A stretch of 54,890 nucleotides of DNA, filler included, from Sphacelaria rigidula (GCA_964200075.2; 4 parts of 4 records of this genome joined end to end with filler, not necessarily neighbours in it), one strand, 5' to 3'. Positions 1 to 32,274 are shown, counted from the whole stretch's first letter. The notes: generated from the sequence alone by a model not told the origin. A program made the numbers and translations.

Positions 1-67
1 CGTCCCGGCTTTGTAGGGATTCGAGGTCAATGGTCTTATGACTATGGCATGCATGATCATGAGTACC
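1..67 (+). mobile_element. 3' tip of a dispersed non-LTR retrotransposon-like repeat (family B)
   Basis: CGTCCCGGCTTTGTAGGGAT..GAGGTCAATGGTCT.ATGACTATGGCATGCA.GATCATGAGTAC recurs at ~31715-31790 and ~34225-34290, and reverse-complemented at ~9305-9375. Confidence 0.7.
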
Positions 68-727
68 GTAAAACCACTCTTTGCTTTTTCTGTTCTTTCC
101 GTCGATGTTTGCAACCGAGTACGGTGCAGCGGTACAAATCACGCCGTACCACATGGCGAAAACAGACTATGATATCTTGACAGCGTGCATAAAACATATT
201 CTCGAGGTATTCTACCGTAGGGGGTGCACGTTTCAGTTCAAACGCTTTCTGAGGCTGCACGCTACGGTCCAGATGTTTGTAATCCAGAGGCCCCGACAGT
301 GGAATGGCTAAAATAACACAAGTGAGCACCCCTGCAGCACCGTAAAGCCAATTTCGTGCTTTTTCCCGTGACGTTTCGAAAGTTATTGATTAAAATGATT
401 CGAAGTCGAGTTCGCCAACTCCTGCACGAGTCAGATGTAAACCACTGCGGTGTTCGTAGGTTGTATTGTATATGTGTATGTATATATCATACTGTGTATC
501 TCTCCTTCTTAGTATCTCCTTCCCTCGAGATAGTTTTCTTCGGGGGTGTTTTCCGTTCTGCGTACCTGGATGGTAATCACGGTTGAATTTTCGGGTCATC
601 ATCTAATGTGTGTCAATCAATAAATTAAGCAATCAATCGACGGAGATTATCGAGGATTGGCGGCTTCATGTTCCACTGATTATGACATCAGACGCCGCGT
701 TTGTCTTCTCCGCATCATGTTGGTTAG

Positions 728-3700
728 GTGACAACGACAGCATTGACGACCGCTGTCGGCCCTCAACACCAAGCGCCGAACGATACCGCATACTCGTTTC
801 AATCGCTGGAAGCATGGCCCTCGCTGTCCCTCACCAATGTGAGTTTGCATTCCGTCCCTCCGGTCCATGTACAACAGATCGAATTTTGTTGGTGTAGCTT
901 GTGCTGTCCTCGTTCCGTAGTATACCAGAGATGTGTTCTTTCTTCTGTCCCAACTGCTGGGCAACACACAACAGGCGGATATCGTATGTAAACATTGTTC
1001 GGACGCCGTTTATAGATGTGGTCTTTATGTCTCCAACCCTTTCAAGTACTTTGGAGCTGCGACGAGATGGTGGAGATATGAGGCAAAAACTTGCACTCGG
1101 ATACTGCCTTCTAAATGCCATAGTTTTCAATGCGTGTTTTTCGTGATATTTCAGATCGGCTCGCCGGAGGAACTCTCTAGTAAAACTCGAGTGTCGAAAT
1201 GCATGGAGCGAGAAAACATTTCCTGAACGTTCTCAGCACCGGCCCGATTGTTCAATTGCTTCTGCTCCCACTCGATGGGCATTACATACTTTCCACTTTA
1301 CCTCGACACACTGCTGCCCCCATCAGAAGAAGGGAGTTGATACAAGCAATCATAGCAACAACACTATTCTACGTATGTATCGAGATTTCGCAAGGGGTTG
1401 CATGTCACTGCATGTTGGAGCACTTGCTGTGAACACGGCCAACAAACCAGCTGAGTCACGAATCTGCGTCCCAGATCGCCCTCACGATTTCGCCACTCAC
1501 ACAAATCTCAGTGGATTCAATGCTGAAAACGTTCGTTTGCGTCCTGCGTGCCGTCTATTTTGGTGTCTATTGCCGGGTAGGTTGGGAAGGTCGCAGATCA
1601 ACAGTACGATGGTAATGCTTCGCGTCTGGCCAGCAACGGGTTGGCCGACGTGGGAGAGTACACCACTTATGAGATTACGATAACCAACACCGGTGAGAAC
1701 AATGCTTGCCCACAGCGGTAGATTCCAACCGGTGGGGTTGGTTTTCATTTTTGCGATACTCCAGTGGATATATTCTCATACCTGAACATAAGAGCGCGCT
1801 GTGAAGAGTCAAGGTTAGAGTTGTGCCGCATGACTCTTCAATGCCGCATAGAACCCCGGGTACTACCCCATATAGGCAGAGGTTGCAAACCGGACGCCCT
1901 GTACAGGTGAATGCAAATACTAGACAGACGTCAAGATGAACATGAACACCTCGAGGTGAAGTAAACGGCGAAGTAACTGAACTCACTCGTGCATTCGCTA
2001 TAGCAAGCATTACCTGCACCCGGCTTACTTGTTGATGTGGCTGGTCACTTTACGCTGGTCGGACGGTAGTAAGCATCGGCGGCGATGTTGCGTCTGTGGT
2101 GGAAAGTTGAATGCTTCCGCACACTCAGCAGAAGAAAGCAATAAGTTCGGGCTGTAGTGCTTCAGGTTTGATCATGCGTGCTAGTGACACGCATCAGGCA
2201 CACAAAAATGTCCTGATACCATATACTTTTTGCCTGCAAACTTCCTCAAGATTGTGTGAAAACCGATGTTTCATCGTGACACAATTGGTTTAATATCGGG
2301 TGACACATCTATCTTCAGCCCCATATTTAATACATTGATATTGTACCCGATAAATCAATATTCTGACGGTCGATAATACGATACTCATCTCTGCATGTAC
2401 GCATCCCTATTGCGCGCCGTGATGCCCGTGCGGATATTTTCATGCGTTCCTCTGCCGTTTAATTTTTGAGCCATCTTCTCGTTTTTCGCGTGTTCTTCTC
2501 TCTGCCCTCACCCGGTATACTCTGTGTCCCGCTGCTGCACAGCTGGCGGTTGAGATTTCGTGCTCAAATAGTGCGGGTCCCAAATACTTGATTGGCGATC
2601 TGCGTGGTATTTGCCTCTTGTGCGGCTTCCTGACCTGAAGCCCTCGGAGATATTGTGGTCCAGCTCGTGAACGGCATTAGATCTTAGCTTGCCGCTATTC
2701 CATACCGTTTCACTTTTGTTTCGCAAAAGCTTATGCTGATTGTTGTCTCCTTGTATGTTCGCCCATCCGCCTCGTGCGCATTTCCCCTCCCTATTTCGTT
2801 TGAGCGAAAAAGTGTTTCTGTACATTCACCGTAGGGACGTCGATCTTCTGACCACATCACAACTTGATTAGGCCCGGGTTAGTTAAAGTAGTGTGCGACA
2901 AATAATCAGCCTAATTACTCCATCACTGGTGCCCCGCAGGGATGCTGAGCGTTCACAAAATCGTGGTGGAAGAGATGCTAGAAGGGGCGGAGGTGGTGTG
3001 CGACACGCATCACGTCGGTCTAGGTCGCAGCTATGTATGCAACGCGACGTACCCGCTGACGCAGGTAAGGCTTGGCACACGTACGCTGGTCTCATTCGAG
3101 ACACTGCGCATACTGATTTTATTATTCTTGCCGGTTTGGCACTTCCTGTATCTGGTTCGTGTCTATATGTTTTCACTGTGGTGGCTGCGACTCAAGTGAG
3201 AGAATCATCGGACTGAGCAAGTGAAACGATGCGAGTGCGTGGGCGAAGGACGATCGCGTCAATTCCCGTTTGTCCTGTGTCCATCAAAACATACATTGGG
3301 AAGGTGCTCAAAGGCTGAACGAACGCGGGGGAACACGCACGTTCGAAGCGGGCTTTGTCCGTAATGCCGTCGACGTGATCGTGCCAGCTGATGAAACAAT
3401 ATTCGACCTCGACGGCAATCCTCCCCGGAATATCGAGTCATGGTCTCTCCACAAAATGTAAATGTCAAGTGCAACAACACCATTCCGCGTATTCCACAAA
3501 TCCGTGCAGATCTCATTCTCATTTCCTCGGCGACGAATAATCAGCGCTATAGTCAAACGACGATGCCAGAAGATTTCCCACTGGCAGATAATGTACGAGG
3601 ACATTCCGATACTCACCTGAACCAGAATTGATGCGAGTCTTGGGCTGAACAGAGCGGTTCTTCGCTTCTGGACTAATGTTGTCGTACCACTGTTCCTGCT

Positions 3701-6700
3701 TTTTCCCAGTTTCGTTTCAGCGAGTGTCTCCCTCTTTTTGCCTCAGACATGTCGTATCTCGTGGCCACAGTCGCGTTCGTATCGGAACAGGAAAATCAAG
3801 CAATCAACTTTGAAGAAGAGGGCGGTCATTGAGAGACGATGTAGCGTACTTGGCAGCCACATTACCCACGGCATGCATGCAAACTCGGGCGAACATATCG
3901 TCCAAACCCGGCATGGTGGTCGAGAGAGCAACAATTTCGAAGCCGCCGAATAGACCACGGAGCTCACAGTCAACTGTGATGATGTGTGCTCATGTTTTCC
4001 TCGGACCGAACGACAAACAGAACGACCTGGACAACGGGGAAGTCACCAACGTCGCCCGTGCAGTCGGCTATGGTCCAAGGAAGAGTGGAAGTGATGGTGA
4101 AAACCGTTCATCCACCGAGGCTGAGGGTAGCGCTTGGGTGGATCTTCCGCAACACGCCTCCTTACAGGTTTGCAGCTCACGAACGTGGGCACGGACACTC
4201 CTCGTTCACAAAAAGAACAGAGTATTATACTATAATGTGAGGTTATCACAGACTATCCCGTCAGACTGCAATCATGTACCTTTTTTGTAATGCATCGTCC
4301 CTTCGGTGGTACTTGATTTTTATTCCACTAGCTGTTGTCAATAATTCCTGGTACGCACGTATTTGCTTTGCACAACTCATTCCAGGGTGGCACCTCGAGT
4401 TCAACCTGCCCATACGCGTGGATCAGTTGCTCGTCATTGCCTGCCACCTGTGTCTGTGTCCATCGATTGCTGAGGAAGATCGTTCAATTCACTTCTCTTA
4501 GCCAACGTGTGTAGCACGGGTTGGGTTGCGGAAGAATAAACCTGCCTTCGGTTCTGCAAAACGTACAACCTTCAGAGACATGAAGAGAAATACGCGTAAA
4601 ATATCCTGTAGCAATTTAGGATACATCGGAAGCATGTTATACTAAATGAAGTGCCTATACTACGGGCGAAGGGTACTATCCCCGAGTTGCGCACACCTGC
4701 TTCACGTTACGTGCGTTATACTCGACCATGTCGACGTCCGTGCACCAGAGTTACCGAGAGTCTGTTCTTCGCAGAAATTGGTTGCGTTTCTGGTTAATAC
4801 CGCAAGAAACCTTCCACGTTCGGGGAGGAAATATGCTTTCTGATCTTAACAATGATCGTGCTGGGTATGTGACGTCATGTCTTGTTTGTACGGCAGATGG
4901 ACCAGGCGTGTACTTGGGAAGACGGGAGTCCAGAAGATGGTTGGCCGGATCCTGGCGAATTCATGCTCCTCACGTACACTATCAGGTGAATCATTACATA
5001 GGATGTATTCATTCTGCGCTTGTCATGAACTACCTGCATATGATGATTTGACTGCATTTCCTGTATCACGAGCTGAGCATTCATAATGGCACGAATTACG
5101 CGCGCACAGGCACGACCCAACCCACGTGTGGTGTTCACATACCTCCTTGAACGCGCTGCGTCAAAAAGGACAGTGAATTTGTCTCCTACGCTTGCGTGCA
5201 CAATTTCTCAACTGAACAACTCCTCAGCTGCTCAAGTGATCTCCGTACCCCTGTGAAGCCGGAAGTATAACGCGTATACTTGACCGTCAATTCTGACTAT
5301 GTCAGACGTTAAGTGAATGGTGATGAATAGATGCGCGTGTGTATTTGCATGATGAACTTCGAGAATGTGCACACCCGATCGGCCAACCGCGAATAGAAAC
5401 AACGGCAGCGTAACGCTTTTGGACGGAACCATACTCGAGAGAGACGGAAGTGGAGGAGGGATCGACTGCTCGCTAGATTCACTGGCGCCAAACGACGAGG
5501 TGGAAGCGCACTTGAAGCGAACAACTGAATTTGATCGAAAACATCACCTACGTCTATTTTATGTCTTTTTTTTAGGCCTTACCGCTTCTTGATTTCTGTG
5601 GTTTCTGTCACTAGGCTCGATGGACGGATGATGCTTTGAAAATATGTCTTTTCCGCTACCGATGGCCGGCACGACAAATTTCGTAGCCTAGCGGACGTGT
5701 AGCAAGAAGCTGGCTGAAAATGGTATGTGCTAGGTAGTTTAACCCATTTCCCAAGAGTCGGGTAGGGTGGGAGCTCGGGATTCACACCCGGCTGGTCCTC
5801 CAATCGTTTCCGACGGATGTTTTTGGGTTCCACCGAGCTTTCACACGATACACAACCGCTATTTGTGTGTTTCTTTCAGGCGACGTGCACATCTTTGAAC
5901 GTCATCACCCAGTCAGACATCGACTCAGGCTCGGCCACAAGCACCTCCACTATCACTGCCATGAGGTGAGTATCGCCGACAACCATCTGCCGTGACCAAC
6001 TTTTCCGCGCCGCGGTGACCCAACAGATAGTGCACCAAGACGTGATTGGGCAGGTTCCGTGGGTTGTAGTCCCGTCGTAGAATTACTTTCGAGCTTCCGA
6101 TGTCCAGAATAGCATGAAACCGTAAGTTGGGAAAGGACATTGATGAAAGTCGACAGACTGCAGGAGTTCTCATCCGATGCACGATAATGCAGTACGATAT
6201 TAATTGTTTTCTGAGGAGTAGAGACTCGTCCTGCGGAGAGGGGGAGCGAGCCAGGGGTGGAAGGATCACAGTTGAACATAACGACACAAAACAAGAAGTA
6301 TAACTCTACGTCTCCACACGGGGACTGAATGGTAGTAGCGTTCTGCATTCACTCGGTCACTTGGTTGAGTCCTGCCTCGACATAGTTAGCTGAGTACGTC
6401 TGGAGCATTGTCGATACCATGAGTGCTACGTATGCGGACGCCCTAGTGGATACCCAACGGCAGCAACAGTTCCGCCGACGTGACTTTTCCTGTTAGCTTC
6501 TCAGCTTACATCATCTATTTCCCCAAGGTAACAAGTCAATGCTGTCGCGCTACCATACACGCTTCGGTGGAGGATCCCAGAGTCCATTGTGCATGTTCAG
6601 ATCAAACCTAGCGCGTACAAAAAGACCGTAGCTCCAGCGCTGTATCATGAGCCGCCCTGCGGGCGGCTTCCAGCTGTGCACTCCCAAGCCCCACTGTAAA

Positions 6701-9700
6701 TTCATAGCGGCTTGTTCGATCTGTTTTTGTACTTGTTTTTTCTCTCACAGTCCCCTGCAACTGCCTACGGCGGGTTCGGCAGCTTGCTCCTGGTTATGGG
6801 AAGATATACCGCCTTTGATAACGGCAAACGTCACCGCGCGTTTCGTGGATGAGAGTGGCGATGGCCTTGCCCAACTAGGAGAAACTATAACGTTCAATAT
6901 CACTATCGTCAACACGGGCAAGGTACTGCCATTCATCTTTGTTTGGTCCACCGTGTAAGGATTGTAACATTGTTGAAGTTTAGAGTAGAGTCGAATCCGC
7001 ACTAGGTGTATCAACGTTATCGACACTACAGAAACCCGACGCCGGTGTTTCTTGCAGCAGTATAGACGTTTCCGAATAGTACGAAAAGTCGGCTCACGTT
7101 GTGTGCGTTAACGTCGTCGAAGTGTGTTACCCGCGGATGGATCCTACTGCGACGCGCTCCAGGCAGCTCCGACCTCCGGTCTAGTACTTCCAGCTACGAG
7201 CTGCTGCTGAAAAGGCTAGGAGAAGAACAATTAGAAGGGTCGGCATAGTGAAGGGTGTACCGCACAAATACGCGAGGACGCTAGTTCTATCTAATATGAG
7301 GTGTATGACGCGTAGCCTTTGATTCGTTGATCACCTGAGTACCCCCATCACTGTCAATACTGGCAAGGTAAAGTCCAATAGGTATAGAGCTGTATTATCG
7401 ATTAATCACGCGACTATGACGGGAAGGTGTTCGGGAACATGAGCACCGTTCACTACAGTTTGAAACTTTTCATATCAGCCAAACCACGAGTGCTACTGCT
7501 CGAGAAACAAGTAGATAGCCTCAAAATCTCCCGGATAGGAATGGTTCGCAGAAATGAAAGCAAGAATCAGGACATGGTTTTGCGGACGTCCCATCTCAAC
7601 AGCGAGGCGAATTCAAGTGGGGAACCACATACCCTCGCAGGAGAATCCACAAAGAAGCAAACTCAACATAAATGTTCCCTCCCTCTCGTCAATCAACCGA
7701 ACGTGTCCCCCTCAGGTAACCGTAAGCATTATCGACGCGATTGCAACGGCAGTATCTTCATCATCTTCAACCAACGCGACCGCCGTGAAATCCAACCATT
7801 CGGAATCATCGGGATCTACTCTTTCCCCGGGCGAAACGCTGCACTCCACTTCGGAGTACTCAATTAGCCGAGACGAGAGTAACCTCGGCGAGGTAAGAGC
7901 ACCCGTGCTCGACGACCCACTGGGACTGGAAGTCGCATACGAAGAGCTAAATGAAGCGAGGAACGGTGTGATAGATCTTCTCCATCCGAAACCATAGCTC
8001 TGCGGTGTTTTTGTCTTCATACTCGAGCTTCTATTATATTGACTCTTTGAAGGGGTGAGGCCACATTTCGGACCAATATCTCAAGCTGACCTTCAACGCC
8101 GTCGACGAAGGCGCAATCGCTGAGCAGCTCCTCCCTCCTCATGAGTACCATCCCTAGTGACAACATGCCGCATATTTTCTTGGTCTCCAGTTCATCAATA
8201 TAGAATACCGTTGCACCGAAGCAGTTGTCCTTCACGTGTTTTCAGTGGTTTCTTCGAAGCTCATCTGGTCAGGGGCCGCGCCCTTGGGGTTCAGTGTATC
8301 GTAGCACTAACGGACTACAACGACATCCCACGCCGAGCTCACCTGTAGTACTTGGGATTACTCTGGTGTCTAAGGGTTTAATCCGGGAGAAAATCGTGAA
8401 AAATAGCACTTATCAGCCGGGGTTGTCATACTGCGTCGGAATCATCCTACGATCGGGGGGGGGGTCTTTTGGGCCATTTGTTGCTCGAAATTTCGAGTCA
8501 GATNNNNNNNNNNGAAGGATGTCTGACACAATTATGAGCCTCTTTTTTCGTGCAACCAAATACCTCCCCCCCTATCGTAGGATGACTCGTCGGCTACAGT
8601 ATTGTGTCGCATAAGTGGGCAACGACGACACTCATACCCACCCCGACACTACTGCTTGCAATGCGCGGGGGAGAGGGGCGTTTTTTTCTGTTGCTTGCCT
8701 CTGTGGTTTGACCATTGACCACGCATCCCTTTCGAAATGGAGCACTGTTCCTACCCCTTATAAGGAGCGCTTCAATAGTAGGGGGCTCGTGACGTTATTT
8801 CTTTACATTTCATAAGAACAGTGCACATATCTTATCCTCTTCCTGTTTCGCCATCTGTGGCCACCATCTGTCTCCTAGCATTGCGATCGTTTTGTCCCTA
8901 CTATCAAGTGTACCAAACGTTTTCATGCTATTTCCGTACAGTTCCCCAATTCCCTCTGACACGTCCCGTCCCTCCTTGTATAGCTCATATTCGCCCACTA
9001 CATGAGTTCCGCTCTCTGTTACTTTCCCACAGGGGAAAATTCTGCTATCACCTCCACCCGACTACTGGTATACCTCTTCTTCTTTGCAACGGGCGTACTC
9101 ATTTTTTGCTTACCTTGGTCGTCTGACCATTGACCATCTTTGCAACGGGGGGGGGGGGGGGGTTGGGGGGGTCCTTGGCCCTGGCGTGCCATATGGAGAA
9201 GCCCGCCAACCCCCCTACTGCNNNNNNNNNNCTTCTTTTTCCTGTGGTGCTGGTCGGGTCTCGGCGCGGCGGAGGGGGGGGGGGGGGGGGGGGGGGCGGA
9301 CTGGGGGGTCTCATGACCTTGCATGCCATAGTCATGAGACCATCAACCTCACATCCGTACAAAGCCGGAGCGGTGCAGGTCGGGTTCTCAACGGACCAGG
9401 CTCACAATCACCAGGCGCGAAGCGCCGTGATGTGTTCGGCGAGTCGCGCGAAGGGTGGGCTTCATCTTACTAAGATTGTACTGATAATCTTGAATGTGGA
9501 TGACAACCTCGAATGAGTTGCTTCATTTTCTGGTATCACCACTTCCAGAGACGGCCACGGGGTTACACATTTGCCTCATGGTTGTTCATCATGTGAACGC
9601 CACCTTGTACGATAATCTCATTCACGCGGAGTTTAGGTTATGATCTAAGCTCCACCACGATCATGGCTACCGCAGAAGAACCCAAGCGAAGAAAAAACTG

Positions 9701-12700
9701 TACACCGCTTGCCTCGGCTACGCAATGGGGGGGGGGGGGGGGGGTGCCGAAGACGCAGGTGAAGGTTGTTGACGCTCTCGCGGGGGTGGGGTGGTGTACT
9801 TTTTTAACAATTTTTGTTACTCNNNNNNNNNNTTTATATTTTGTGTTTTTTTTGTTTGTGTGTTTTTTGTTTGTTTTGTGTTGTGTGGGGTGGGTTGGTT
9901 TTGGTTGGTGTAAGACAAGACGGGAACAGATGCTACGTCTCCCCCAGGGAGCCGTGTGTGCTACTCTTATACAAATATCGAGTTTAGATTATGGTGAATC
10001 CAGCGTGGGACTCGTGTTGGGTCATTGTTTCTGTATTACTCGCGCGGTTTTTTCTCAAGCCACAAAGATGTAAGGTCGTGGTTACTGACTACAAATGACT
10101 CAAGTGGTCTAACTCGTTAGATGCTGGTATATGTATTCGTCATACTTAAGCGTTCAAAATCCTTGGGAGAAGTCAGTCGTCCTGAAGAACCCTCCCATCT
10201 CTCACGCGGTAGCTGCTTTGAAACGCATTGTAAAGCATTGGATGACGATTCATTCCCACGCTTTCCACGACAGGAGCTACCAAGAAAAGATATTTCCATT
10301 ACGATTCAGGCAGAGCATGTACCAGTTTGATCCCCGAGTCGCGACAGTCTTGTAGAACTCAGGCGGAACACGACAGAGCTTTGACCTCACTTGATATCCA
10401 TCGTATTGGAATTTAACCACGGTGACAAACGTTTCTGCTCCGACGGTGCCTTGTTGCATACTCGGCGAAAATGACGCAGAGCACAGCGGAGGTAGCTGTG
10501 ACAGTTACAGGCCCCAACGGCACAGAAGCAACGTTCACCTATACCTACATCCAAGATCTCCCGACGAAGCACGGCGTGTCACTCACGTTGATTGGAGGAG
10601 ATACTGCTTCATCTGACGTAGACGGAGACGGAAGATCGTCCAACGGCGATGTCGTTACTTTTGCACTTACGGTCACGAACACGGGGAGTGTAGATCTCAC
10701 AGGAGTACGAGTGCTGGCGGCGGAATTGGATGGGCTGGGCTGTCAGCGATTCGTCCCCTCGGCCAGCACCACAGGTTTGTGGGCAGGGTGTACCCTTGGC
10801 CTGCCCGATATTCTGGTCCGTGATATTCACGCAGACTTCAGGCTGATGTCTGTTCAAATTACAACGTGCTGGGTGATGCATACCACCGCAGCCGACCAAA
10901 TTGTTTGAGCCCCAATTTCGTGCGTCAATACGAGTGCTCGGCGCTAGACTTGATTGTTTCCAGGGAAAAACAACTTCTGAGTATTTTCACGACTTCCAGC
11001 GGATTGAGGTAACTACCTGCGTGTGTGTGTCTGCAGGCCAAAGCCGAAGACTTGATTGGACCACGAACGATACCGATCACGATACATTTCCCCAGGGCGA
11101 AAACTATACGTGCACAGGATCGTACACGCTCAGCCAGGTCAGTACTAAAGTACGCAAATATCGAGTATAACACTGCCATGGCTAGGAGTTATTTTGGGGG
11201 GGAGAGTTGAGACCCCACAATACACTCCGAATAAATCGACCCACGGCGCGCTGTATATTTGGCAGTTCCATAAGACTCAGTTGTCGATGCACCAAACGCT
11301 TGGCTTGAAAAGGTATGTACGGAAATACCTGGCGGGTTCATCGCAATTTTGGCGATGACACTGCTTTGAAAAGCTCAGCATCTTCTCCTAGCACTACAAT
11401 ACTGTACACAGTTGAATACCTCCCTCCGACAGGCAATAGGCTCCGCACAGACCACCATCATGCGTGTTCAAGGGTGTCAACCGATTCTGATCATATTAGA
11501 CGTTGATTAAGCGATGGTGTGTATATATGCGATACATTTCTCCTCGACAGGATGATGTCGACGCGGGGGTGTTACACGCTACAGCTAGCGTCACGGGATA
11601 TGCTAAAGATGCAGGTAAGCATAGGCAATACTGACTGCCAGGTTCTGCGTCGTTTTATTGCCTGCCCTTTCAACAGTGCGCAGACTCGTAAAGGAATGCT
11701 TCTGCAGAATATATCAGATGTTTCGCTCAGACATTGTTCAACGCATGGAAAATATTGTTCACCTGCCCTCTGCTAGTATGCAGACTCGGGGTGGTAAAAA
11801 TTGCTGCATAATACAATCATACCAGCTCAGACCTTTTTCGAAGTTCCAACAAAATACCGTGCTGTAAGTAAGTAAACGAACTTCCGTCGGGCAACAGCGT
11901 TTGCAGTTGAAAGAAAAAGGTATTGTCACGTCTTTAAACGGGGGGAAAGATGTTTTTCCTCCGGCTATCTCGCGAACGTTGCTCGCCATCAATCATTGGT
12001 CCACGAAGGTGCTCCAGTAAATGTGTACAAGCAACGATATCTTTGTTCAAAACCAGCCCTCGAACACTTGACCTGCTAAGGAGTATGTCCAACGTGTTAT
12101 ACCTATCGTACCTACTTCTCTCCGAAAAAATCTGAAAGGGATATCCAGTGCTGCATATTTCCATACAGACTGGCGTTTTAGGTACATTTTGCTATCTCAC
12201 GATCTTCGGCGACTGCTTTCCTTGGATCCGCCATGGCTGCATAACTGCAGGACGTCCGAATGTTAGATACTTTGGGGTCAGGGTCGGCTCATTGGCTCAA
12301 CGGCATCACCTGTTTTCATACGTCCGCCCTCGGAGTGGACATTTTATGTCAATGAAAGTCTTCTTGTCGGGACCCTTTTACGTTAGTGCTTCGTCTCAAT
12401 CACAACGTGTTCGGTTTTTGATGTTCAGGCGGAACCTTTGTGGCGGCTGGTGCCGAAGAAACGCAGATCTTGGAGGCACATCATTCCGTAGTACTGGTAA
12501 AGGTAAGAGAATCCTCGGATAATTCAATATGCTTGGCTATACCCGTACGTAAGAGACCAAGACGTATATACTCCTGCAGAACGCAGTCCTTTCCCTTGTT
12601 TCTTCTCACATCTAGCGTCTCCCCTTTTCCCTGAGGACGATCCTGCGGTGTCAATGGACCATCCCATCTTCCTCTCTCTCTTTATACCCGATAAACGCCT

Positions 12701-13519
12701 TAAGTTTTGGTGCCACGCATTAGATCTTTGATCATTGGAGGGTGAAGAGTACGAACATGTGTCCGTGTTGTTGACACCTTCCTTTAAACGATCTCTCGTC
12801 TAGTGCAGATCCCCAGATGACTCCCCATTGGACGGTACACGAGTTGCGACTGAGAAAAACAATGTAACGGCACCGCGAAGTACGGATATGTGTTCTTCTG
12901 GTAGTGGATGAATGGTGTATAGTTCCGGAGTAGAACGCGTTCACGCAGCTCATGTGGTGTTGTTGCTTCAGAACACACTCTCTTGCGTTGTGAAAGGGTA
13001 CGACAGCTTGACTCAGGTAACGTCCGCAAGAATCCACTTTACCTGGGAACTGGGATTGGTTGTCGCACTTTGATTGACCCCCAGGGGTCCAGCTGTGGTC
13101 TCATGATAGACGTACCCAAAAAACCCAAAACTGAAACGCTCCCCTGGGAAGGAATATCTATCCGGTCCCACACGGCATATGGCTCACCTAGCACTGCTGA
13201 TGGTCTGTGTCCGAGGGTCAGTCTTCTAAGATGTATATGGATATTGAATACGCTCGAGTCTCTACCTTGCGGCATGCTGGATGGTACGTTAGGTAATCGT
13301 TGGACTAAAGCCCAAATGACGACCTCCGGCTGACCAAAACTATGGTGTAAAATGTTCTTCAAGCTGGCTTTGTTCACCTGCATTTATTCGCTGAAACTCC
13401 CGCCCCAGGTGGGCAAAGTGATCGACCCGGACGGCGACAATCTGGCAGATGTGGGGGAGACTATTGAATATGAACTGGTGGTCACCAACACGGGAAATGT
13501 TCGTGTCGGAGACCTTCAG
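728..13519 (+). CDS. Partial multi-exon gene (both ends off-contig) for a putative secreted/surface protein with tandem DUF7507/DUF11-like Ig-fold repeats
   Basis: 14 GT-AG exons with compatible phases: 728-838, 1581-1692, 2940-3064, 4021-4167, 4897-4985, 5397-5499, 5880-5965, 6751-6922, 7716-7892, 10480-10774, 11037-11137, 11551-11614, 12429-12502, 13409-13519 (1767 nt, 589 codons, no stop). Recurring motifs: GLADVGEYTTYEITITNTG, DGLAQLGETITFNITIVNTG, DGDGRSSNGDVVTFALTVTNTG, DGDNLADVGETIEYELVVTNTG; and CNATYPLTQNDLDNG, CTSLNVITQSDIDSG, CTGSYTLSQDDVDAG. Confidence 0.88.
8425..8605. mobile_element. Small terminal-inverted-repeat element (MITE-like) containing a 10-N gap
   Basis: Left end CATACTGCGTCGGAATCATCCTACGATCGGGGGG is an imperfect inverted copy of right end CCCCCCCTATCGTAGGATGACTCGTCGGCTACAGTATTG. 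Confidence 0.5.
8690..9010 (-). mobile_element. Degenerate 3' end of a LINE ORF2 (family A)
   Basis: Minus-strand translation GEYELYKEGRDVSE..FGTLDSRDKTIAMLGDRWWPQMAKQEEDKI..RNSAPFRKGCVVNGQTTEASN resembles the C-terminus of brown-algal LINE ORF2 as I recall it. It lies in intron 9 of the repeat gene. Confidence 0.7.
9095..9440 (-). mobile_element. Two further LINE-like 3' tips (family A-like at ~9095-9150; family B at ~9305-9440) separated by poly-G tracts and an N gap
   Basis: KMVNGQTTKVSKK matches the family A end. YGCEVDGLMTMACKVMR matches family B copies at 1-67, ~31700 and ~34200. Confidence 0.65.
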
Positions 13520-13649
13520 GTAGTACGTTTTGGGTAGCCGATTACCGATTGATGTGCAAACCCCCCCCAAAAACAAATTAAGCCAGGAAATATGGCAACT
13601 CATTGTTGGCTGTTATCCAAATGCAAGATAATCAGTAGGCTTCGGGCCG

Positions 13650-13749
13650 NNNNNNNNNNNNNNNNNNNNNNNNNNNNNNNNNNNNNNNNNNNNTTAATTA
13701 ATTAANNNNNNNNNNNNNNNNNNNNNNNNNNNNNNNNNNNNNNNNNNNN
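13650..13749. other. Artificial contig-joining linker
   Basis: 44 N + TTAATTAATTAA (stops in all six frames) + 44 N = 100 bp. Confidence 0.98.
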
Positions 13750-13899
13750 AGGTACACGCGGCCCAAACACGTGGAATGGCGCAAAAGTTACGTGGATACC
13801 CCTTGGACCAGCGGTCAACTTTTCTCTCCCTTTTGGGCAGTGGGGCCGAAGAAATCGTGGATTTGGTGATTCGTAGTCGTGGTGATTCGTCCTAACCGT

Positions 13900-14297
13900 T
13901 CAAGTAACTCGCCTCGCCAACCAAGCACCAACTGTAGGATCAAGTAACTTGGTCCATCTACGCTCGGTTCAAGCAACTTGCCTCATCCAGTCTAAGATCA
14001 ATCGACTAGCTTCCCCCGTACTCGGTTCTTGTAACTTGCCTCCCGTAATCTTTAATCAATTAACCTGCCTCAGCTATTCTGCTGTCAAGTGAATTAGTTC
14101 ACGTATGCTCTGTTGAGGCATTTTGCCTCAACTAGTCAAAGATCAAGTGATTTGGTAGACCCATACTCTGTTCAAGTAAGTTGCCTTCCCTATGGCTGAG
14201 TCAAGTAACCCGCCCTGGCTGGTCTAATATCAAGTGGCTTGGTTCGCCTATACTCCGTTCAAGTGATTGATTCCCGCACTCTTAGATCACGTGACTC
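13900..14297. repeat. Degenerate 29-bp minisatellite (~13 units)
   Basis: TCAAGTAACTTG-like heads at 13940, 13969, 13998, 14027, 14056, 14085, 14114, 14143, 14172, 14201, 14230, 14259. Confidence 0.8.
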
Positions 14298-15393
14298 ATT
14301 TTTTATATACATTAGTGTAGAAACATATTTATGTATAATTTGGTATGTCCCCTGGAGGCTGAAAATAAAAAAGAGAGGGTGTGGGTCAGGAGGGATATTT
14401 TCGGACACCCCTGTCACAACAGCTGTTTTTTGAAAACACAAAAAGCCCTCACACATGATCATGCGGGTGTCGAATATCCGCATACCGTAGAAAGTGGTGC
14501 TGGAGAACCCCCTACAGGTTTTGAGGCACAAGTCAAGTGAGAGTATGTGTGTCTTCGCCGAGCTTTTTCCGTGGGGTATCATGCTGTCATGCTGTGCAAG
14601 TGTGGTGCCGTCTGGCAGCCACCACTCACTGCTGTGATATTTGCGAACAACGTACATCCTCTCTATCCATGTACGCTTTTCCTGCAGTGCTGGCACACCT
14701 CAAGCGTGGTATTTGATCTTATAAGCCTTCCACATCGTCTCAAGTGTACTTTTTTTCCCCACTGTACTGTACCGTACACGAAAACTTGCTTCCTCAGCGA
14801 TTGAATACAACGATATGGGGCAATCAGCGTGTCATCGCTCTCCACTGAACACAGTCTATCTACTTCAAGCTGTTGCTATTTCTGCTCCGAGTTGTTGCGC
14901 AACAAGGTCACAGTGTGCAGCTGTCTTCATAGCCCAAGAGGGGGAAGACAAGGCGCAATGACTGCAAACAGGGCAAAAAACGATGTCTTGGCCTGTGTTT
15001 TCCCATGGCTGAGTGGTCGTTACTCAAATGGTCAAATACGGCTGAACTGCAAGTTAGTTGTTCTGTAGTTGATCTCAGGGAACACAAGGTGACAAAATTA
15101 ACCAATCACAGCAGTCAAAATAGCCACCTCCTTGTCTTCGGGGTTGGTGCTTGCCTTGAGTTGTTGCTTTAGAGACTCTCATGCGGACATGGTTAGATTC
15201 TAAAGCTTCCCTGGTGATGTGTGATCAGGCATCCCCCACACCCCTGGAAACCCCCTTCCCCTTCCCCCTGGAAACCCGTAGATGCACCTCGATGGTCAGC
15301 CCCCGAAACTGTCCCAAGGCGAGGCTCGCACTCAAAGGGTTAACCTTCACGTGCTGTGTATCCGGTCCCCTGTTGTTGCCTTTGAAACTATAG

Positions 15394-18300
15394 TGCCACT
15401 AGCTCGGACAGCGATAACCCTGCGGAGTCGGGCACGATCTTCATGGAGACTTTCGACCGAGAAATTGCAGGTGTGTGTGGTGTGGCGGTCTGCAGCCTGC
15501 AGCACGGTACAGCCCTCAAATCCTTGCCGTCGTGCGCGCCGTGTTATGCACGGACGCTGGCATGGGCAGGCTGAGTGATGAGTCTCCGAATCAAATTCAC
15601 CGTACCCTCTGTTCATACTTTCGTATCTTCAGTACCGCTGTACCCATAGAACTTCGAGCATGCATCTATCATCCGTGCTCAGCCCTGCGGGAGCTGGGAA
15701 TTACAGTCTACCCCGGATCTATGATGGCAAACATGAACGTCTCAAAAGCACTTGCTGTGACGCTCTATTGTACTTCGGTGTTGTCCGAGGCTGCTTCTTG
15801 TGCTACGCGTACAAGCAGTTCCAAAATACGTTTCTCGTCGTTTTTGGACATTTCTAAAAAACACCGTCAAATACCGTGGGACGTTTCCTCGGAAACTTGC
15901 GAAATGATGAAAATTCTCAACGAATCCTATTTCTCCGAAAACAATCGAGGAAGGGGTCCCATCTTTCAAACTATATCGGAATTTTTGGAGAAAACGATAC
16001 GACCACACATGCCTCCATATATGCACGTGGCGACTGAGGAATACGAGGGTAGTTAACCGGCGTTGGGCTACAAACGTCCATGATTGGCACATTTTACAAG
16101 TATCGCTAACCCTAACCCCAACCCGACGTATACCGAGATTCTTCCGGCAAAAGCGGTACATCGCATTCCGCAGGCAAAGTGCGGCCTTGGTAGACCCCAA
16201 ATCGGCGCCTGTGGCGCCGATTTCAACGCAAACGCGTTCTGCGCACGCGAGGAGCACACGGGACTGTCAACCCCACCAAAGATCCGATTCTCGTTGTACA
16301 CACTCAAAGTGAGTAATGTGTCAACCATGAACATTTGTAGCCCAAGGCCGGTTAACTCTACTGAGGAATGCAGAGGCTTGAGGCTGTCTGGATAGGTGAG
16401 ACGAGGAGCTCATGGAAGTTCGGTCGGCCAGAATCCCGACGTGTCGGCGGTAATGAGTCTGACGACCGCCGATGGCAGTATCACGTTATTGATGGCGAGG
16501 AATGATGGGGAGCTGATTGTGCTGGTTTTTTCGACGGCGAATTTCCGGTTACTTCGGCGCTCCCTCTTTGTCCTTGCGATGCAGTGCCTGACGCCTGCTG
16601 CTCTGCCACATTTCCTCTGCACGACACGATGTATATACTCTTCTGTCCTTTTCACTGTTATGCAACTCTGTAGTTCATCACCAAGCTACAACGCCGCCTC
16701 CGAAAATTCACGCCTCTCTGTATATGCGCGATTGCAGCGAAATACAGCAGTCAGCCAATCTTGGATTGTTAGGGTGTACATGTTGTGTTCATCGAGCGAT
16801 TTTGTGAGTCATGCGTTTTTTAGCGCATTGATCCTCGACTGTCGTGAATGTGACTCGAGGTTTTAATGGGCAAGTTGTACCCCTCACGTGCATGCCATCA
16901 TTCACGCCTATGTTAGTGGCTATACAGTCTATCGTATCGTGAATCCATGAAAACTATGGCGGGGATCGTTCGTGCAGAGATGGACGAAATCGTTGGTACA
17001 AGCAAGGAAAGTTGACATGAAGTGATAACTGATGGGCATACCCGAGGAAGGGATCCAGCCATGGTGAAAGCATGGACAGACCCGAGGCGAGCAAATGGGA
17101 ACCCTCGGAAATACTCCAACGGTTGGACAGATGAATGGTTCGTCTGGAAATTACTAGATTCTAGTGTCATTGATCCGTACCGTATAAAGAAACCCTTCGG
17201 TTTTGTTTTCAGCGTTGCAACCCCAGGTACGCGCAGCCCACGCACGTGGAATGGCGCAAAAACTGGGTGCGAGACCTTTTCGACCAGCGGTCAACTTTTT
17301 TTTCTCTCTTGCGAGCAAGAACGCCTGAAAAATCGTGGATTTGGCAATTCGAACCGGCGATGATTCGTCCGAACCGTGGAATACTCGCTAGAGGAAACTC
17401 GAGAAAAAGAAAAGACGAGGAAATAAAGGAAGAAGGAGAGATGGAGCAAAGTAAGTTGAACAAAAACGGAAGATGAATACAATAGAACAGAAAACACATG
17501 GACAGGAAAGGGGGGAAGGAGGAACATGGACACGAAGAAGTGAAAATCATTACAAAAATAGGAAGGAAAAACCACGGAACAAGATATGGCCATTGCCTGC
17601 AGCATGTTCAGAATGATCGGAGAAAACGGCCGTCTCATGTCAAGTGCACTGTCCTGTTGATCCACCTCACATCGGCGATTGGGAAGATAGCACTGGGCAC
17701 CCGAAGCCAGAACTACTGTGGCACAGCACCACTCATGGATTATGGCTCATATCACTCGACAATGCGTGTAACACTACTGCTTGAAGGAACACCCTAGCTG
17801 CTTACACTTATTCGTATCTTATCTGCACCGACGCACCGATGCGGATGCACAGAATATTCTGAGATATTTACTCATTGGCGACTTATCAGATCATTGCGTG
17901 CGCGCACGGATCTGGGAATCTTGAAGAAGCGGTGGTATAAATTCACGATTCGTCCACGTTCAAACATTGCACAAATCAACCATGCAGTTCATTTCGGGCA
18001 AGTGTGGTTTGTGCATGTTTTGGACTTGTGATTCATGCGGCACTACATGGAACGGAACAATCTTGCTCGTCATTCATGTGGTACAACCTCGAAGGTACAT
18101 GTTTCCTATTTGTGATTCATACGGCATGAATCACGCGTACACATTTTCCACTTGTAATTCATACAGCATGAATCATACATGTACGTTTTCCACCGTTCAT
18201 TCACAAGACATGAATCACGCGCGCACATTCCCCACCTCTCAGGTGTACGGCATGAATCAAAGGCAGATTATTCCGACCACCTTTTCTATGCCGGGACCCT

Positions 18301-21300
18301 TTACTTTGGCACGCATTACGCAACCGCTGCACATGAGGCTCGAATCTTACGTTCATTTTCCGCATCCAAAAAATTGTGCGGCATGACTATCGCGCACTGT
18401 GATAAACCTCACTTGTGGCTGACGTCGCACACATGTTGAACACTATTTTTTAGAGTAAATGATGCCGATTCAACGGTTCACGCACCCTAGCAATGAAAGG
18501 GGGAACTCTTCCGCCGCTAGTGTGGGTCATCCGTTGAATAATCATTTTGACTTGAAAGATGAAAACGAAACCCAGGTCGTCAACTCTGAAGGTCAAAGGG
18601 TCAACGCGCGAGAGTTGTAGAACGCCAGTCACCCGTAGAGTAAGTTGTTGGTTATTCACATGAATGAAAGCGTACTGTTCTTGCGATAACGGTAATATGT
18701 TATCGCTTCCCTTCCCAGCAGTGATTTATTTGGAATGCATCGAAAGTACGTATTTCTCGCCCGCCATTCGCGCGGCACGAATCAAGCGCACATGTTTGCC
18801 AGCTGTCCTTGATGAAGCATGTACCATGTACATATTTCCCACTTGCGATTCGTGCGGGATAAATCGCGTTGATACTTTCCCCAGCAACGAGTCGTACAAG
18901 GTTCGTACATGATTTGTACTCTTTCTTCATGTGGCACTGTTTCGAGCGTATCCAATGCCGTTTGCCGATCGTGCGATGCCACCTCCATCGTACGTTTTTA
19001 TCATCTGCCGTTGACACATGATGACCCTTTGGCACACGAATCGCACTCGACAGTGGTAACGAGTCACCTCTTACGAATCTAAATCCGTCCGGTGTGGGGG
19101 CTATTCACAGTATCCCTCGTCCATGATGTCAAGTCGAAATTCGTCGGCGTTGAGACCTTCATATCCGGAAGGGGTTATCTATACCGTCGGCCACCTCAAC
19201 GCTTCAGTTGTGACTCTTCCCGTAGCTTCTATATGTACTGTAGTACTGCTGCTGGACACGCCGTGATCAACTGCAACTTTACCTACGAGGTGCAGATATA
19301 TCGAGGGTGCTGGCCGAGCTCGTGGCGGGACACAAACAAACAGCGGCGGGAACGGGACTGGTAGGTGCTAGGCATGCGCACTCGAGCTCAGCTGGTACCA
19401 ACGTCGATGACGTGGGTGCAGCATTGGACGATCTTATCGATAGGGTGAAGGGGCTTAGACAACGCACCGCAGAAGCGACGCTATTCTTGTCGGCCTACGA
19501 CACCAGGCGAGCCCTCGAGGTAGGTGCCTTACCGCTCACGGTAGAGCAAGCCGTGCGTTGTGCCAAACTGGGGTGGTGGTGTGTACAGCATGTCGTGTGT
19601 CGTTCCCTGTTGACAGCTCCGCATCGTTCTTCTGTGAAGCTACGTACAGTACGAAGGGGCTGATGCAGAAACGCCACTTGCACGCCCGCACGTGACAGTC
19701 ACAGATCCCCCACACCCTTACATGTGGTTCGAATGTCACTTTTGTGGCATTCGTTCTTGTGAAAACCCCACGTTGAGGCCTCTAGGACGAGAAATGTTTT
19801 CTTGTTTTCCTGTTTGCACGACACAGCTGTGCAGGTTCGTTCATTTTCTCACAACAGCCTGTGAAGAACGACGTAGTGGCGTCAATATCGGATTGCGGAT
19901 GATGTGACCGGCGCGTATTTCAATGTCGATTATGTTGACGGAAACCCTGCAGGAGGCTGGAAAACTCTTGTACAGTGTCGAAACAACGCGCGCAGAGATT
20001 GCGCCGAGGAAACGATTCTCGTTCCGCAGTAGGAAGAGCGGCAAGGGAGGCGCCGACGCGGGGAGGGGCGGCCTGTCGAAAATGAAGGCCGCGGCAGAGT
20101 CAACACCACCGACGGTGACAGGTGAGATGTAACCAGTGGAAGATGTAGCAGAGGCTATAGTATAGCCCGAACAACAGTACTACGAGACGCCATAGGACAG
20201 CTATGTTGAACATGATCGAAGTCGGTGGTGTCCTGTCGCAGTGAACACCTTTGTGCTGCTGTGACAGTACAGCGCAGTCACGTGGAGTTACGTGGGGCAA
20301 CCCGAAGTTAAGGAATTATTTTCTCAGCGGGTGCAGCAGTCTCGTATCACTTGGCATGTCAAGGCACTGACAAGGTGCGAGCGGAGATTCATATCGTTTA
20401 TCAGTCAGAGCTTTGGAGCAAGTGCGTTGGATGTTTTTTCTCCACGACTTCACGGGGGGGTGGAGCGTCGTGAAGAGGGAGGATTATCATCATTTTGCGT
20501 GTATTTCGTGATTGACTCAGCACTACATGTCGTCCTCAACGCGATTGCAGAGATTGCGCCCTTGAAGGGGTCGCCATTACGAGGGAATCATATTTCTAAC
20601 GCCTCGACGAACACATATTGCTGCACCTGCCGAACAAGGCATTCCGAGGATGTGGCATATTGTGTTATAGCTGCGGCTTTGGTAGTCGACCTGATGACAC
20701 CGTGGCCTGATGTACCGACACTCATCGCGCGCACTAGAGAGCACGAGTACTTGATATACTTGCTTCGTGCACCTTGCATCGTGATTATTTTCATCTCCAG
20801 AGCTCGAGAGTGACGGAGACCGGTTGGGGTTGTGCGGGTTGAAAGAGCAAAGTATGGACGTGAGCGCAGAGGACGCTGACAAAGACAAAGACTTCAATGT
20901 CTCAGACCTGACCTCATGTACCGTCAAGATGTGAGTCTCCAGTGTGGTTCACCGTGTGTCCGACAGCAGATCACAACGTGGATGGTGCCTATGCTTCGTC
21001 ATCGATTGATTCTATGGCCTTCAGATGGTTGTGCATCCCGAAGTGCCCCGAGGAGGCGCCTCGGTAGGCGGATACACCTCTCTTCGGCGAGATCCATCTG
21101 CGTATTTTCTCTCCACGGGCAACTGTATCGCAGCTTCGACGTAAAGCCCATGTCCACACACTATCCATCCCACACGCAATCTCCCCACCCTGTGTTCTAT
21201 AGGGTACGAGTTTTTGTTTACCCGGGATCTTTACCCGGGTATAACCTGTAACCGACAGTTATGTAAGATCTCGAACCCTTTTGGTACTGACGATGGAGGA

Positions 21301-24280: not shown

Positions 24281-25715
24281 AGTGGGCTTATTTTGTACAA
24301 GGATGTCGAATAAATGACAATAGGAGTGATAGGGGAATCTCGAACGCGCCTTGTTGTCAGTCCGTTTGTGCGAAATGCAAAGTGCTGAGATGCGAGAGAA
24401 ATGTGATCGAGTTGTATGGGTAACGCCGAGGGCGCCGGAAAATGACGAATATGATGGCCTAAGATGTGGTTCGCCTCTTGAGTCGGTGCAGAGCGTTGTA
24501 CCCGAATAAGTTGACCGATCACGGGAAACAGCTGCCCTTGCGTAGACGAAATGATGTCGGATCGAAGCGATGGTCATGGCAGGCCTTGCATCAAATTTAC
24601 GGGAATCATAAAGGTTCAGTGTAGAATGCTAGCGAACTTGGCCAGCCAGCATTGAACAACGTTCGTGAGATTGAGAGTAAAGCGCTGATTGAGAATGGCT
24701 TTGATCATCTGCTTTAACTTGGCCAATTTTTCATTCCGTGTGTGCTTTTCTTTGCCTTCATCACTGGCGTGTGTATACAGCTAAACCTCGATATCCTACT
24801 CGGGGATATCAAGGGCCTCAGTGGCAAGCTACTACAGAAAGCATATTGGGTCTCGTGGAGGGGCATTTCGGAACTGAAATGATCCATTCACTATTTGACG
24901 GCTTGGCACTATCATATCTCTCGAAAACATTGTTTTTGGTGTTCGTGGAGGGCTTATTTATGATGGTGCGCGATGGAAGTTGAATAAGATGAGTTCAAAG
25001 CATGGGGATAGCGGCGAGTGTCCATGATCCTCCCGAATGCAGGTGTGGTATGTGCGCAAGACCTACACTGGTTCGAGGTACAGCTGTTTCCCCAGCAACT
25101 CTACACATGGGTTGTCATCATCACCCGGCTAGCATCTCCTGATCAATAGCAAGGATTTTGACATGAGCAGCGTTGCACTCGCGTCACCGTGTCTCTGAAC
25201 CCGTCCGAAGATGGTTCCATGATATCTTCTCCTTGCCACCCGGCACTAAAATAGTCCTGTGCGGTTTTGTTCAGCAGAGCCAGTCATGGGCGTTTCTTCG
25301 TCATGTCGAGAGCCTACGGTCGGTGCCATAAGCACCGCATTCTGGAAAGCTACGTTCCTGTTCCGAAAATTAGTTCCATGTAGAGCAGGTCGGTGATGCG
25401 TGCCCCTCGGAGCCCCGCGAAGGCCCCGCCGGAGGCGAAAAATAGGGGATCTTTAAGGGCGCAGCGCGGAGAATTTTTTCGGATATGTAGCCCCCCCCCC
25501 CATCCCGGAGGGCATTTTTTTCGAGAATTGCCATGATTTTTTTTGTCAACTTTATCGAAGGAAATTGATCAATAAACAATGACAAACACCGAAAAGTCTG
25601 GTGGGCTTTGCGGGGTTCGTATATCTGCTTCTGCTCCTTGCCCGCTCTGTCCCGATGACCCCAGATGCCGAAGGGCATTTCTTTCAAGGGTCTACATGTT
25701 GCACGGGCGACAGAG

Positions 25716-26410
25716 TTACACGTTACGTCCACCTTACGTTTTGGCCGAAACGTAACGTGAACGTTGGAAAAAAAAATACGTCATGAACGCAACGTGAAAA
25801 ATTCAACGTGACATGCGTAACAACACGTGATTTTACGAATTTGGGATGAGAACCCGGAGAACTAAAATCTTCGTATCCACACCAAATCTTCGAAACATGC
25901 TTCCATTTTTTCACTTGTCGGTAGCTATTGACAACTACTACACGCCATACAAAGTTCGATTTCGATAACCGAAGTGTCGGGGTCCTAGGTGAACAACCAA
26001 TTGGTGGGGTACAAAGTTGGATTTGGGGGGATTTAGGTGATCCGATCGGACTCCAAAATTGGTTGTTAACCTAGGACCCCCCCATTTCGGTTATCGAAAT
26101 CCAACTTTGTATGGCGTGTAGTAGTTGTTAATAGCTACCAGTAAGCGAAGAAATGGAAGCATGTTTCGAAGATTTAGTGTGTATACGAAGATTTCAATTC
26201 CCCGGGTTCTCATCCCCAATAAATAATCCATTCTCAATTTGTAAAATCCCGTGTTCAACGTCACGTGAACGTTAAATTGCCCAAACGTCCAAATAATGAA
26301 ATATGAAACGTTTCATGTGACATGCAACGTCTATTACACGTTACACGCTACACGTAACGTTTCATGTTACGTTACACGTTACATGAAACGTCATAAGCGT
26401 CACATGAAGC
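25716..26410. mobile_element. Foldback/palindromic element
   Basis: Arms 25841-26002 and 26057-26219 are highly similar inverted repeats around a ~54-bp spacer, flanked on both sides by ACACGTTAC/GTAACGTG-type short repeats. Confidence 0.75.
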
Positions 26411-31790: not shown

Positions 31791-31829
31791 TTCCTGCATG
31801 TCGTCTGTCCTCGATCGAACGTTTGGCAG

Positions 31830-32221: not shown

Positions 32222-32274
<53 letters not shown>

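Follow-up and report, generated by a model that had tools for sequence, protein, structure and literature searches.

Can a gene built like the stalk of a bacterial surface protein belong to an algal nuclear genome, and how would it have come to be there? A locus in Sphacelaria rigidula (GCA_964200075.2) raises this question. The DNA analyzed here, which we call the window, is a stretch of 54,890 bases in which four contigs (1–13649, 13750–27398, 27499–41144 and 41245–54890) are joined by linkers at 13650–13749, 27399–27498 and 41145–41244. Each linker has the form N44-TTAATTAATTAA-N44, with a stop in all six frames. Because separate contigs meet at these three places, arguments from gene neighborhood across them are meaningless. 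A gene for immunoglobulin-like (Ig-like) repeats takes up the whole of contig 1 and is truncated at both of its ends. We conclude, with moderate confidence, that it is best explained as a naturalized brown-algal gene whose array of DUF7507 domains was acquired from a bacterium and whose product would be a secreted matrix or adhesion rod without isopeptide cross-links.

An earlier note on this DNA had described an intron-split gene of 14 exons at 728–13519, spliced to a frame of 589 codons and running off the contig on both sides. We rebuilt the gene model independently from open reading frame (ORF) pieces, a purpose-built hidden Markov model (HMM) and frame-keeping GT-AG sites, and obtained the same exon count, start and end. 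The 14 GT-AG exons, all on the + strand, sum to 1767 nucleotides (nt) and give 589 codons free of stops. Read in its other five frames, the spliced sequence shows 15–35 stops, and stop density in the introns is 3.5–3.9 per 100 codons. The 13 GT-AG introns are 262–2587 nt long (mean 848 nt), and guanine-plus-cytosine (GC) content is 0.552 in the coding sequence versus 0.487 in the introns. Since exon 1 opens at an acceptor site, the gene extends upstream. It also goes on elsewhere past exon 14, because a contig from one of the RNA-like runs described below (X6 rec22) has 156 nt beyond that exon with no match on 13522–13640, the remaining ~120 bases.

We number the repeats R0 to R5, of which R1–R4 are complete. 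For the HMM we used the 250 bacterial domains that, among the homologous proteins found, matched spliced R1 best over their full length; it was run against every stop-to-stop piece of at least 12 amino acids (aa) in six frames of the whole 54.9-kb window. Nine matches had an expectation value (E) below 0.05; all are on the + strand, within 1626–13522, and are collinear with the HMM through successive repeats. Contigs 2–4 gave no DUF7507 piece at this threshold, and the six-frame scan found no match at 67–727, upstream of exon 1. A search for hidden or decayed exons within introns 4 and 7 and, 5′ of exon 1, at 624–728 also found none. A loose V-x-N-x-G pattern matched 15 times in six frames; the full context of acidic loop and G-E-x-I-x-Y is present in only four of these, all on the + strand, at about 1674, 6899, 10666 and 13475.

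Once spliced, the product scores 250 bits against the HMM and resolves into four complete repeats (about 109–152 aa) with a partial repeat at each end, in agreement with the earlier count. These tandem repeats fill the 589 codons, and the transcript extends at least 156 nt further. No exon by itself encodes a whole repeat. Spliced R1 reaches 86 bits versus 20–23 bits for each of its three exons alone, and spliced R2 reaches 50.3 bits. Assignment to the DUF7507/DUF11-type Ig-like family was likewise upheld, as two single exons pass the Pfam DUF7507 (PF24346, CLIPPER_2) gathering cutoff of 27, with 29.8 and 30.3 bits. When seven ORF pieces were compared with Pfam, two were above that cutoff, three were below it and two had no match (five of seven at E ≤ 10). 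One exon ORF of the window (P0170) carries PF24346 as its precomputed Pfam label, and its database record places it on a contig 13,649 bases long, the length of contig 1.

The gene is a real, spliced and transcribed nuclear gene, with four of its 13 introns shown to be removed and nine predicted. The transcript evidence comes from three small sequencing runs (X5–X7) that were guessed to be RNA; they belong to a different study from the DNA runs and carry the same species label. Mismatch-free contigs from these RNA-like runs bridge the junctions 1692 to 2940, 3064 to 4021, 10774 to 11037 and 12502 to 13409, so the expected splicing was recovered exactly at these four and is predicted from sites and frame at the other nine. 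The intron-skipping contigs align as 1608–1691, 2939–3061 and 4018–4080; as 10698–10771 and 11034–11134; and as 12426–12500 and 13407–13521. Their boundaries were moved by 1–3 nt, within shared bases, to GT-AG sites; with the shared bases resolved, every skipped stretch has GT at its start and AG at its end. Exon 14 is covered in two RNA-like runs. For exons 1, 5, 6, 7, 9 and 12, no RNA-like contig piece was found among those listed of 30,000+. In DNA run X1, single collinear contigs cover 500–8484 and 9910–13093 at a depth of ~29, which is the genome-wide level.

A separate RNA-like signal lies in intron 4 at 4451–4889, just 5′ of exon 5 (at 4897), with a depth of 2.9 in two runs, and fits no exon. 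ORFs within 4451–4889 gave no match to the domain HMM. Its source may be a low-copy repeat, a different transcript, or an extended or alternative form of exon 5.

A brown alga or close relative is supported as the host by sequence elsewhere in the window. On contig 3, a copia-type integrase piece at 28349–28651 (−) matches proteins of Ectocarpus sp. CCAP 1310/34 (Phaeophyceae) with 86% identity across 97% of the piece; this brown alga accounts for all 11 named matches among the 40 returned. An interspersed repeat is common to contigs 1 and 3 (1–66 and 9301–9561 versus 34193–34296 and 31506–31788; 69–94% identity). The 14 GT-AG exons, the Ectocarpus-like copia piece and the repeat that contig 3 has in common with contig 1 all agree with an intron-split gene in an algal genome, as had been proposed.

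Other repeats were seen in the same contigs. Fragments of a Ty1/copia-type retroelement occupy 27851–29745 (−), with a Pol beta-barrel domain at 33.9 bits; because stops interrupt the frame, we read the element as probably a dead copy. The interspersed repeat of contigs 1 and 3 has a recurring peptide-like string in one frame and is situated directly at, or close to, gaps and the ends of contigs. At 8402–9718 (intron 9) and 13231–13640 (3′ of exon 14) there are very high-copy repeats, which contain long runs of G and three 10-N gaps; summed contig depth there is 1e4–6e5 versus ~29 elsewhere on the contig, and many rearranged joints are seen in all runs.

A phmmer search with exon 10 against 1.84 billion representatives returned 1554 proteins at E ≤ 1e-3. 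Of the best 150 of these, 148 are proteins of 869–7892 aa with 5–50 matching stretches, and the only non-giants are two short ORFs with 61% identity. Organism names were attached to 10 of 20 clusters examined and to three of seven matches of another homology search. The named relatives, at 35–44% identity per domain, are Phycicoccus, Haematomicrobium, Aeromicrobium, Crossiella, Nocardioides (three), Naumannella, Gephyromycinifex, Brevibacterium and Amycolatopsis (three). All 13 were assigned to Actinomycetota; three genera were checked, and the others we take to be Actinomycetota as well. Each of the seven Atlas clusters listed is a DUF7507 cluster; taxa are recorded for six of them, in every case 100% Bacteria. 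Per domain, the algal repeats score best with the giant actinobacterial proteins (up to 55 bits for R1 and 49 bits for R2); one cluster member carries the name of an LPxTG surface protein.

The only closer sequences found were short ORFs from public assemblies, namely P0171 (83%), P0143 and P0158 (56–57%) and P0154 (59%). Their identity is 56–83% over exon 10 and 17–48% in the read-through past its donor, as one would expect if related genomes kept an orthologous or paralogous exon under constraint. A word-indexed search at near lengths found only the window’s own ORF and P0171. Scans with exact short patterns, which are weak evidence of absence, gave 350 matches in JGI (Joint Genome Institute) metagenome contigs and 217 in viral contigs, with 0 relatives in either set.

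The repeats have diverged from one another more than from bacteria. R1–R4 have a mutual identity of 21–28%, and each is 36–44% identical to its best bacterial domain over HMM positions 10–100. Because of this difference, transfer of an already diversified array fits better than expansion after transfer. At two positions, one after the first-strand position and one between T/S-Q and D-x-D-x-G, R1 and R4/R5 have introns of the same phase. Since the repeats are so divergent, we tentatively read this as a CAG/G site preference rather than shared ancestry.

A survey of isopeptide domains describes DUF7507 (as CLIPPER_2) in surface stalks of bacteria and archaea and predicts, in CnaA-like domains, an Asp-catalyzed Lys-Asn bond from the first to the penultimate strand (10.1101/2025.04.25.650565). 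We took columns K8, D49 and N88 of the bacterial domains as the isopeptide set from their conservation and from their strand position in a bacterial model. They are present in 86%, 99% and 100% of the 250 bacterial domains. The algal residues at these positions are N/E/N in R1, Q/E/S in R2, unaligned/A/A in R3 and I/A/A in R4, so that the Lys/Asp/Asn set is complete in none of the four complete repeats; the Lys is present in the partial R5. Of the complete repeats, R1, R2 and R4 preserve the Cys pair (HMM columns 57 and 70, at 97% each among the bacterial domains), whereas R3 has other residues at both positions. N36 and G38 are kept in all five repeats that cover those positions, and the N-x-G turn, the aromatic positions and the T-Q-x-D-x-D-x-G motif are also retained. 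N-x-S/T sites number 2.04 per 100 aa in the algal repeats versus 0.98 in the bacterial domains. Because the putative cross-link residues never occur together in any complete repeat, the gene is not simply a copied bacterial adhesin stalk. The same survey text reports that some DUF11 domains also lack the bond residues (10.1101/2025.04.25.650565).

The predicted model of a bacterial DUF7507 domain (P0115; predicted local distance difference test score, pLDDT, 84) is an Ig-like sandwich of eight strands and one short helix. It places K8, D49 and N88 within, or at the tail of, strand 1, strand 3 and one long strand late in the domain. In PDB, Foldseek matched this model only to generic Ig-like/E-set sandwiches, with template modeling (TM) scores of 0.5–0.6. 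Searches of PDB by sequence found nothing below E 0.38 with a profile of exon-10 relatives, no match at E ≤ 0.01 with a whole bacterial DUF7507 protein and none at E ≤ 1 with a profile of seven bacterial domains. From homology to these domains (R1, 86 bits), the algal repeats would have an Ig-like beta-sandwich fold.

The distribution of homologues makes it quite probable that the gene originated by transfer from bacteria. Its closest named homologues are prokaryotic, and its introns, host repeats and composition show integration into the host, which is the pairing by which horizontal gene transfer (HGT) in brown algae is recognized. The earlier note’s proposal of a prokaryote-derived gene is therefore upheld in that every named close relative is prokaryotic; the domain tree is uninformative, which leaves transfer likely rather than settled.

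Several observations weigh against our reading. The argument for transfer rests on the distribution of matches, in a comparison that left named eukaryote proteomes outside, and not on a resolved phylogeny. The domain tree (FastTree, 91 columns, R1–R4 together with the 250 bacterial domains of the HMM, which had matched R1 best over their full length) pairs R3 with R4 and places R1 and R2 each beside a single bacterial domain; it has no single algal clade, and the last common node of the algal repeats spans 63 of 254 leaves, with no donor or nesting. The affinity to Actinomycetota may be biased, as the 150 matches listed are ranked by repeat-summed score, which favors giants; because of this ranking we treat the affinity as a lead and not as a donor assignment. 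In prokaryote species genomes, 86 pattern matches led to three relatives, the actinobacterial Ilumatobacter at 40% and the Bacteroidota Arcicella and Tenacibaculum at 46% and 47%. The RNA-like status of the three runs is a guess, their contig depth is low (2–4) and nine of 13 junctions are predicted. The gene ends lie off contig 1, which places any signal peptide, anchor and adhesive tip regions outside the sequence. The isopeptide role of K8, D49 and N88 is deduced, and no solved DUF7507 structure was found by sequence. Finally, the diatom gene discussed next could mean an older or repeated presence in ochrophytes.

In the strongest rival, the family has a long history in stramenopiles or eukaryotes: it came down by vertical inheritance or was gained a single time by an early ochrophyte ancestor, and not by a transfer specific to brown algae. 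The likeness to Actinomycetota would then only mark the group in which the family has expanded most and has been sampled best. A table entry lists Phaeodactylum tricornutum gene Phatr3_J48356 as “DUF11 domain-containing” (PMC12113381). This diatom gene is likewise a stramenopile nuclear gene and is annotated with the sister Pfam family (DUF11); given that annotation, the family may have been acquired earlier and be common to ochrophytes, or may have been transferred more than once independently. Full amelioration and dense introns would fit great age, as would the wide divergence among the algal repeats (21–28%), but if the split dated back to the domains of life, an identity of 36–44% between each domain and bacteria would be high. 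An old eukaryotic family is also hard to reconcile with the matches themselves: the best 150 of 1554 include no long, eukaryote-style gene model of high identity, and all six of the Atlas clusters for which taxa are recorded are 100% bacterial. Nor does the isopeptide survey contain credible eukaryotic members (10.1101/2025.04.25.650565). We therefore regard this explanation as unlikely.

Could the locus instead be a transcribed relic, an adhesin gene that has lost its function, its cross-link residues included, and is decaying at a weakly expressed locus? The incomplete Lys/Asp/Asn set in four of four complete repeats, the loss of both Cys in R3 as well, the low expression signal (contig depth 2–4) and the position of both gene ends outside the contig could all be read in this way. 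Decay is difficult to square with 0 stops in 589 codons and 14 exons, where intron sequence would give about 21, or with splice sites that are intact and used. Exon 10 has 56–83% identity in relatives against 17–48% in the adjoining read-through, and the fold-core residues N36 and G38 are retained in five of five covering repeats. Such a relic appears quite improbable.

Bacterial contamination or an assembly chimera has a negligible chance of explaining the locus, for although all named relatives are bacterial and published eukaryotic matches of the family were judged contamination in the survey (10.1101/2025.04.25.650565), the gene has 13 GT-AG introns (262–2587 nt), four of them removed in RNA-like contigs; DNA run X1 is collinear over 500–8484 and 9910–13093 at the genome-wide depth of ~29; the introns hold host high-copy repeats that are common to the contig with the Ectocarpus-like copia element; and a scan of prokaryote genomes with exact short patterns found nothing above 47%.

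Under the preferred explanation of a naturalized, bacterially derived gene, a bacterial multi-repeat DUF7507 array would have entered the algal lineage by horizontal transfer, with Actinomycetota as its closest named relatives. The acquired gene appears to have been fully naturalized, with 13 spliceosomal GT-AG introns (mean 848 nt) and a coding GC content of 55%. It encodes no fewer than 4.5 tandem domains of the DUF7507 (CLIPPER_2)/DUF11 type, with a predicted Ig-like beta-sandwich fold. The protein is predicted to enter the secretory pathway and to form a beads-on-a-string rod in the algal extracellular matrix, where it might act as a spacer or as a matrix or adhesion component. We infer secretion because the conserved paired Cys need an oxidizing compartment, because all characterized relatives are extracellular and because glycosylation sites are enriched; with it we predict an extracellular role of the protein. 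The domains may be stabilized by disulfides, and possibly by N-glycans or Ca2+-binding acidic loops, instead of isopeptide cross-links. Binding of Ca2+ by the acidic D-x-D-G-type loops is speculation, prompted only by weak sub-threshold matches to Ca-binding proteins.

A broader and more tentative proposal, which we think somewhat doubtful, is that brown algae, and perhaps their nearest sisters, domesticated a bacterial fibrillar-adhesin stalk as a structural matrix protein of their own and traded isopeptide bonds for disulfides, glycans or Ca2+. If true, no eukaryotic CLIPPER_2 family would have been verified before this one, and it might be linked to cell adhesion in an independently multicellular lineage.

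Comparison with known systems shows where the algal gene stands. It belongs to the same sequence family as the bacterial and archaeal DUF7507 surface stalks, in the same tandem arrangement, and has their core of G-D/E-x-I-x-Y, V-x-N-x-G, a Cys pair and T-Q-x-D-x-D-x-G. Unlike those stalks, it is nuclear and spliced, its Lys/Asp/Asn residues never occur together in the four complete repeats, and it has about twice the density of N-x-S/T sites found in the bacterial domains. The giant actinobacterial DUF7507 proteins, to which the algal repeats have 36–44% identity over HMM positions 10–100, include that of Phycicoccus sonneratiae (6065 aa) and Nocardioides, Naumannella and Brevibacterium proteins of 2–6 thousand aa. 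In contrast to the algal gene, they are intronless, have many more repeats and carry K8, D49 and N88 at 86%, 99% and 100%.

Bacteria-like genes of the extracellular matrix have precedents in brown algae. In two reports, the closest bacterial relatives of brown-algal mannuronan C5-epimerases are Actinobacteria, at ~30% identity, and the cell wall/envelope class is prevalent among HGT-derived genes (PMC11468063; 10.1101/2024.02.19.579948). Like these matrix genes, the gene described here is bacteria-like, intron-bearing and naturalized, and would fall in the cell wall/envelope class. The epimerases are enzymes with published phylogenies, whereas the Ig-repeat gene encodes a structural repeat protein; it would add a structural, non-enzymatic candidate to the bacteria-derived extracellular-matrix genes of brown algae. 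The Phaeoexplorer paper puts bacteria-to-brown-alga transfers at ~1% of genes, and in its main text “DUF11” and “adhesin” have 0 occurrences; its list of HGT genes is a separate data file.

Our literature searches, which covered articles and not their supplements, found no paper joining brown alga, horizontal gene transfer and DUF11, and the isopeptide survey was the only one found on DUF7507. A paper on an “adhesin-like” protein of lily concerns GLEYA-type repeats and is irrelevant, and a chrysophyte preprint matched only through DUF1118. As far as these searches go, supplements aside, this is the first documented eukaryotic member of DUF7507. The survey judged eukaryotic matches to be likely contamination and recognized no credible eukaryotic members (10.1101/2025.04.25.650565), and a genuine eukaryotic gene stands against that verdict. 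Because one eukaryote gene has 13 introns and spliced transcripts, the range of DUF7507 reaches eukaryotes. This is not a new kind of system; it is a known prokaryotic surface-domain family, and what sets this member apart is that the putative cross-link residues have been lost. The locus would thus be a natural experiment in which residues near-invariant in bacteria were lost after transfer while the fold core was kept.

Table 1. Exons of the Ig-repeat gene on contig 1, with repeat content, domain scores and evidence for their boundaries
Exon	Position	Strand	Content	HMM or Pfam score	Splice sites and RNA-like evidence
1	728..838	+	37 codons, C-terminal part of partial repeat R0	HMM E=31, non-significant alone	AG acceptor, GTGAGT donor; predicted; faint depth in one RNA-like run, bin 500-938
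2	1581..1692	+	Start of R1, acidic loop to N-T-G motif	HMM 20.0 bits	GTGAGA donor; X7 rec23 spans 1608-1691 and joins directly to 2939
3	2940..3064	+	Mid R1: both conserved Cys, Y-x-L-T-Q	HMM 23.2 bits	Entire exon within X7 rec23, with both flanking junctions
4	4021..4167	+	R1 end: D-x-D-x-G, V-x-N-x-A strand, linker	HMM 22.5 bits	5′ junction by X7 rec23 (4018-4080); donor CAG/GTTTGC predicted
5	4897..4985	+	Start of R2	No separate HMM match	Predicted from GT-AG, phase and motif
6	5397..5499	+	Mid R2	HMM 10.9 bits, E 0.041	Phase-2 junction completes codon with exon 5; predicted
7	5880..5965	+	R2 second Cys, T-Q-x-D-x-D-x-G	HMM 15.9 bits, E 0.0012; Pfam DUF7507 15.8 bits, below cutoff	Pyrimidine-rich acceptor, GTGAGT donor; predicted
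8	6751..6922	+	R2 end, linker, R3 start	HMM 20.9 bits	Acceptor predicted; X6 rec16 spans 6823-6920, plus 53 further unmatched nt
9	7716..7892	+	Rest of R3, the repeat without Cys pair	HMM 9.3 bits, E 0.13	GT-AG, phase 0 on both sides; predicted; faint RNA-like depth, bin 7524-7962
10	10480..10774	+	Largest exon, 98 codons + 1 nt: R3 end and first 60% of R4	Pfam DUF7507 29.8 bits (cutoff 27); HMM 38.5 bits	X6 rec21 joins 10771 to 11034
11	11037..11137	+	R4 insertion, second Cys, Y-T-L-S-Q		X6 rec21 spans 11034-11134, plus 49 further nt; donor predicted
12	11551..11614	+	R4 D-D-V-D-A-G and next strand	HMM 11.9 bits, E 0.02	GT-AG and phase; predicted; faint RNA-like depth, bin 11475-11913
13	12429..12502	+	R4 end, closes with L-V-K strand opening R5		AAG/GTAAGA donor; X5 rec15 spans 12426-12500 and joins to 13407
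14	13409..13519	+	First third of R5; transcript continues off contig	Pfam DUF7507 30.3 bits (cutoff 27); HMM 39.2 bits	X5 rec15 and X6 rec22

Three minor features were seen on the other contigs. On contig 2, a second short repeated element occurs three times, at 13750–13899 (−), about 17200–17360 (−) and about 21380–21555 (+), with the same translated string. An ORF piece at 19244–19663 (+) weakly resembles the N-terminal domain of tubulin-specific chaperone C, with a score below threshold (18.6 bits, cutoff 27). A 646-codon open frame at 37445–39385 (−) is located in the GC-richest part of the window (0.59); it is rich in Ser, Ala, Pro and Gly and has a poly-Pro tract beside a 10-N gap.

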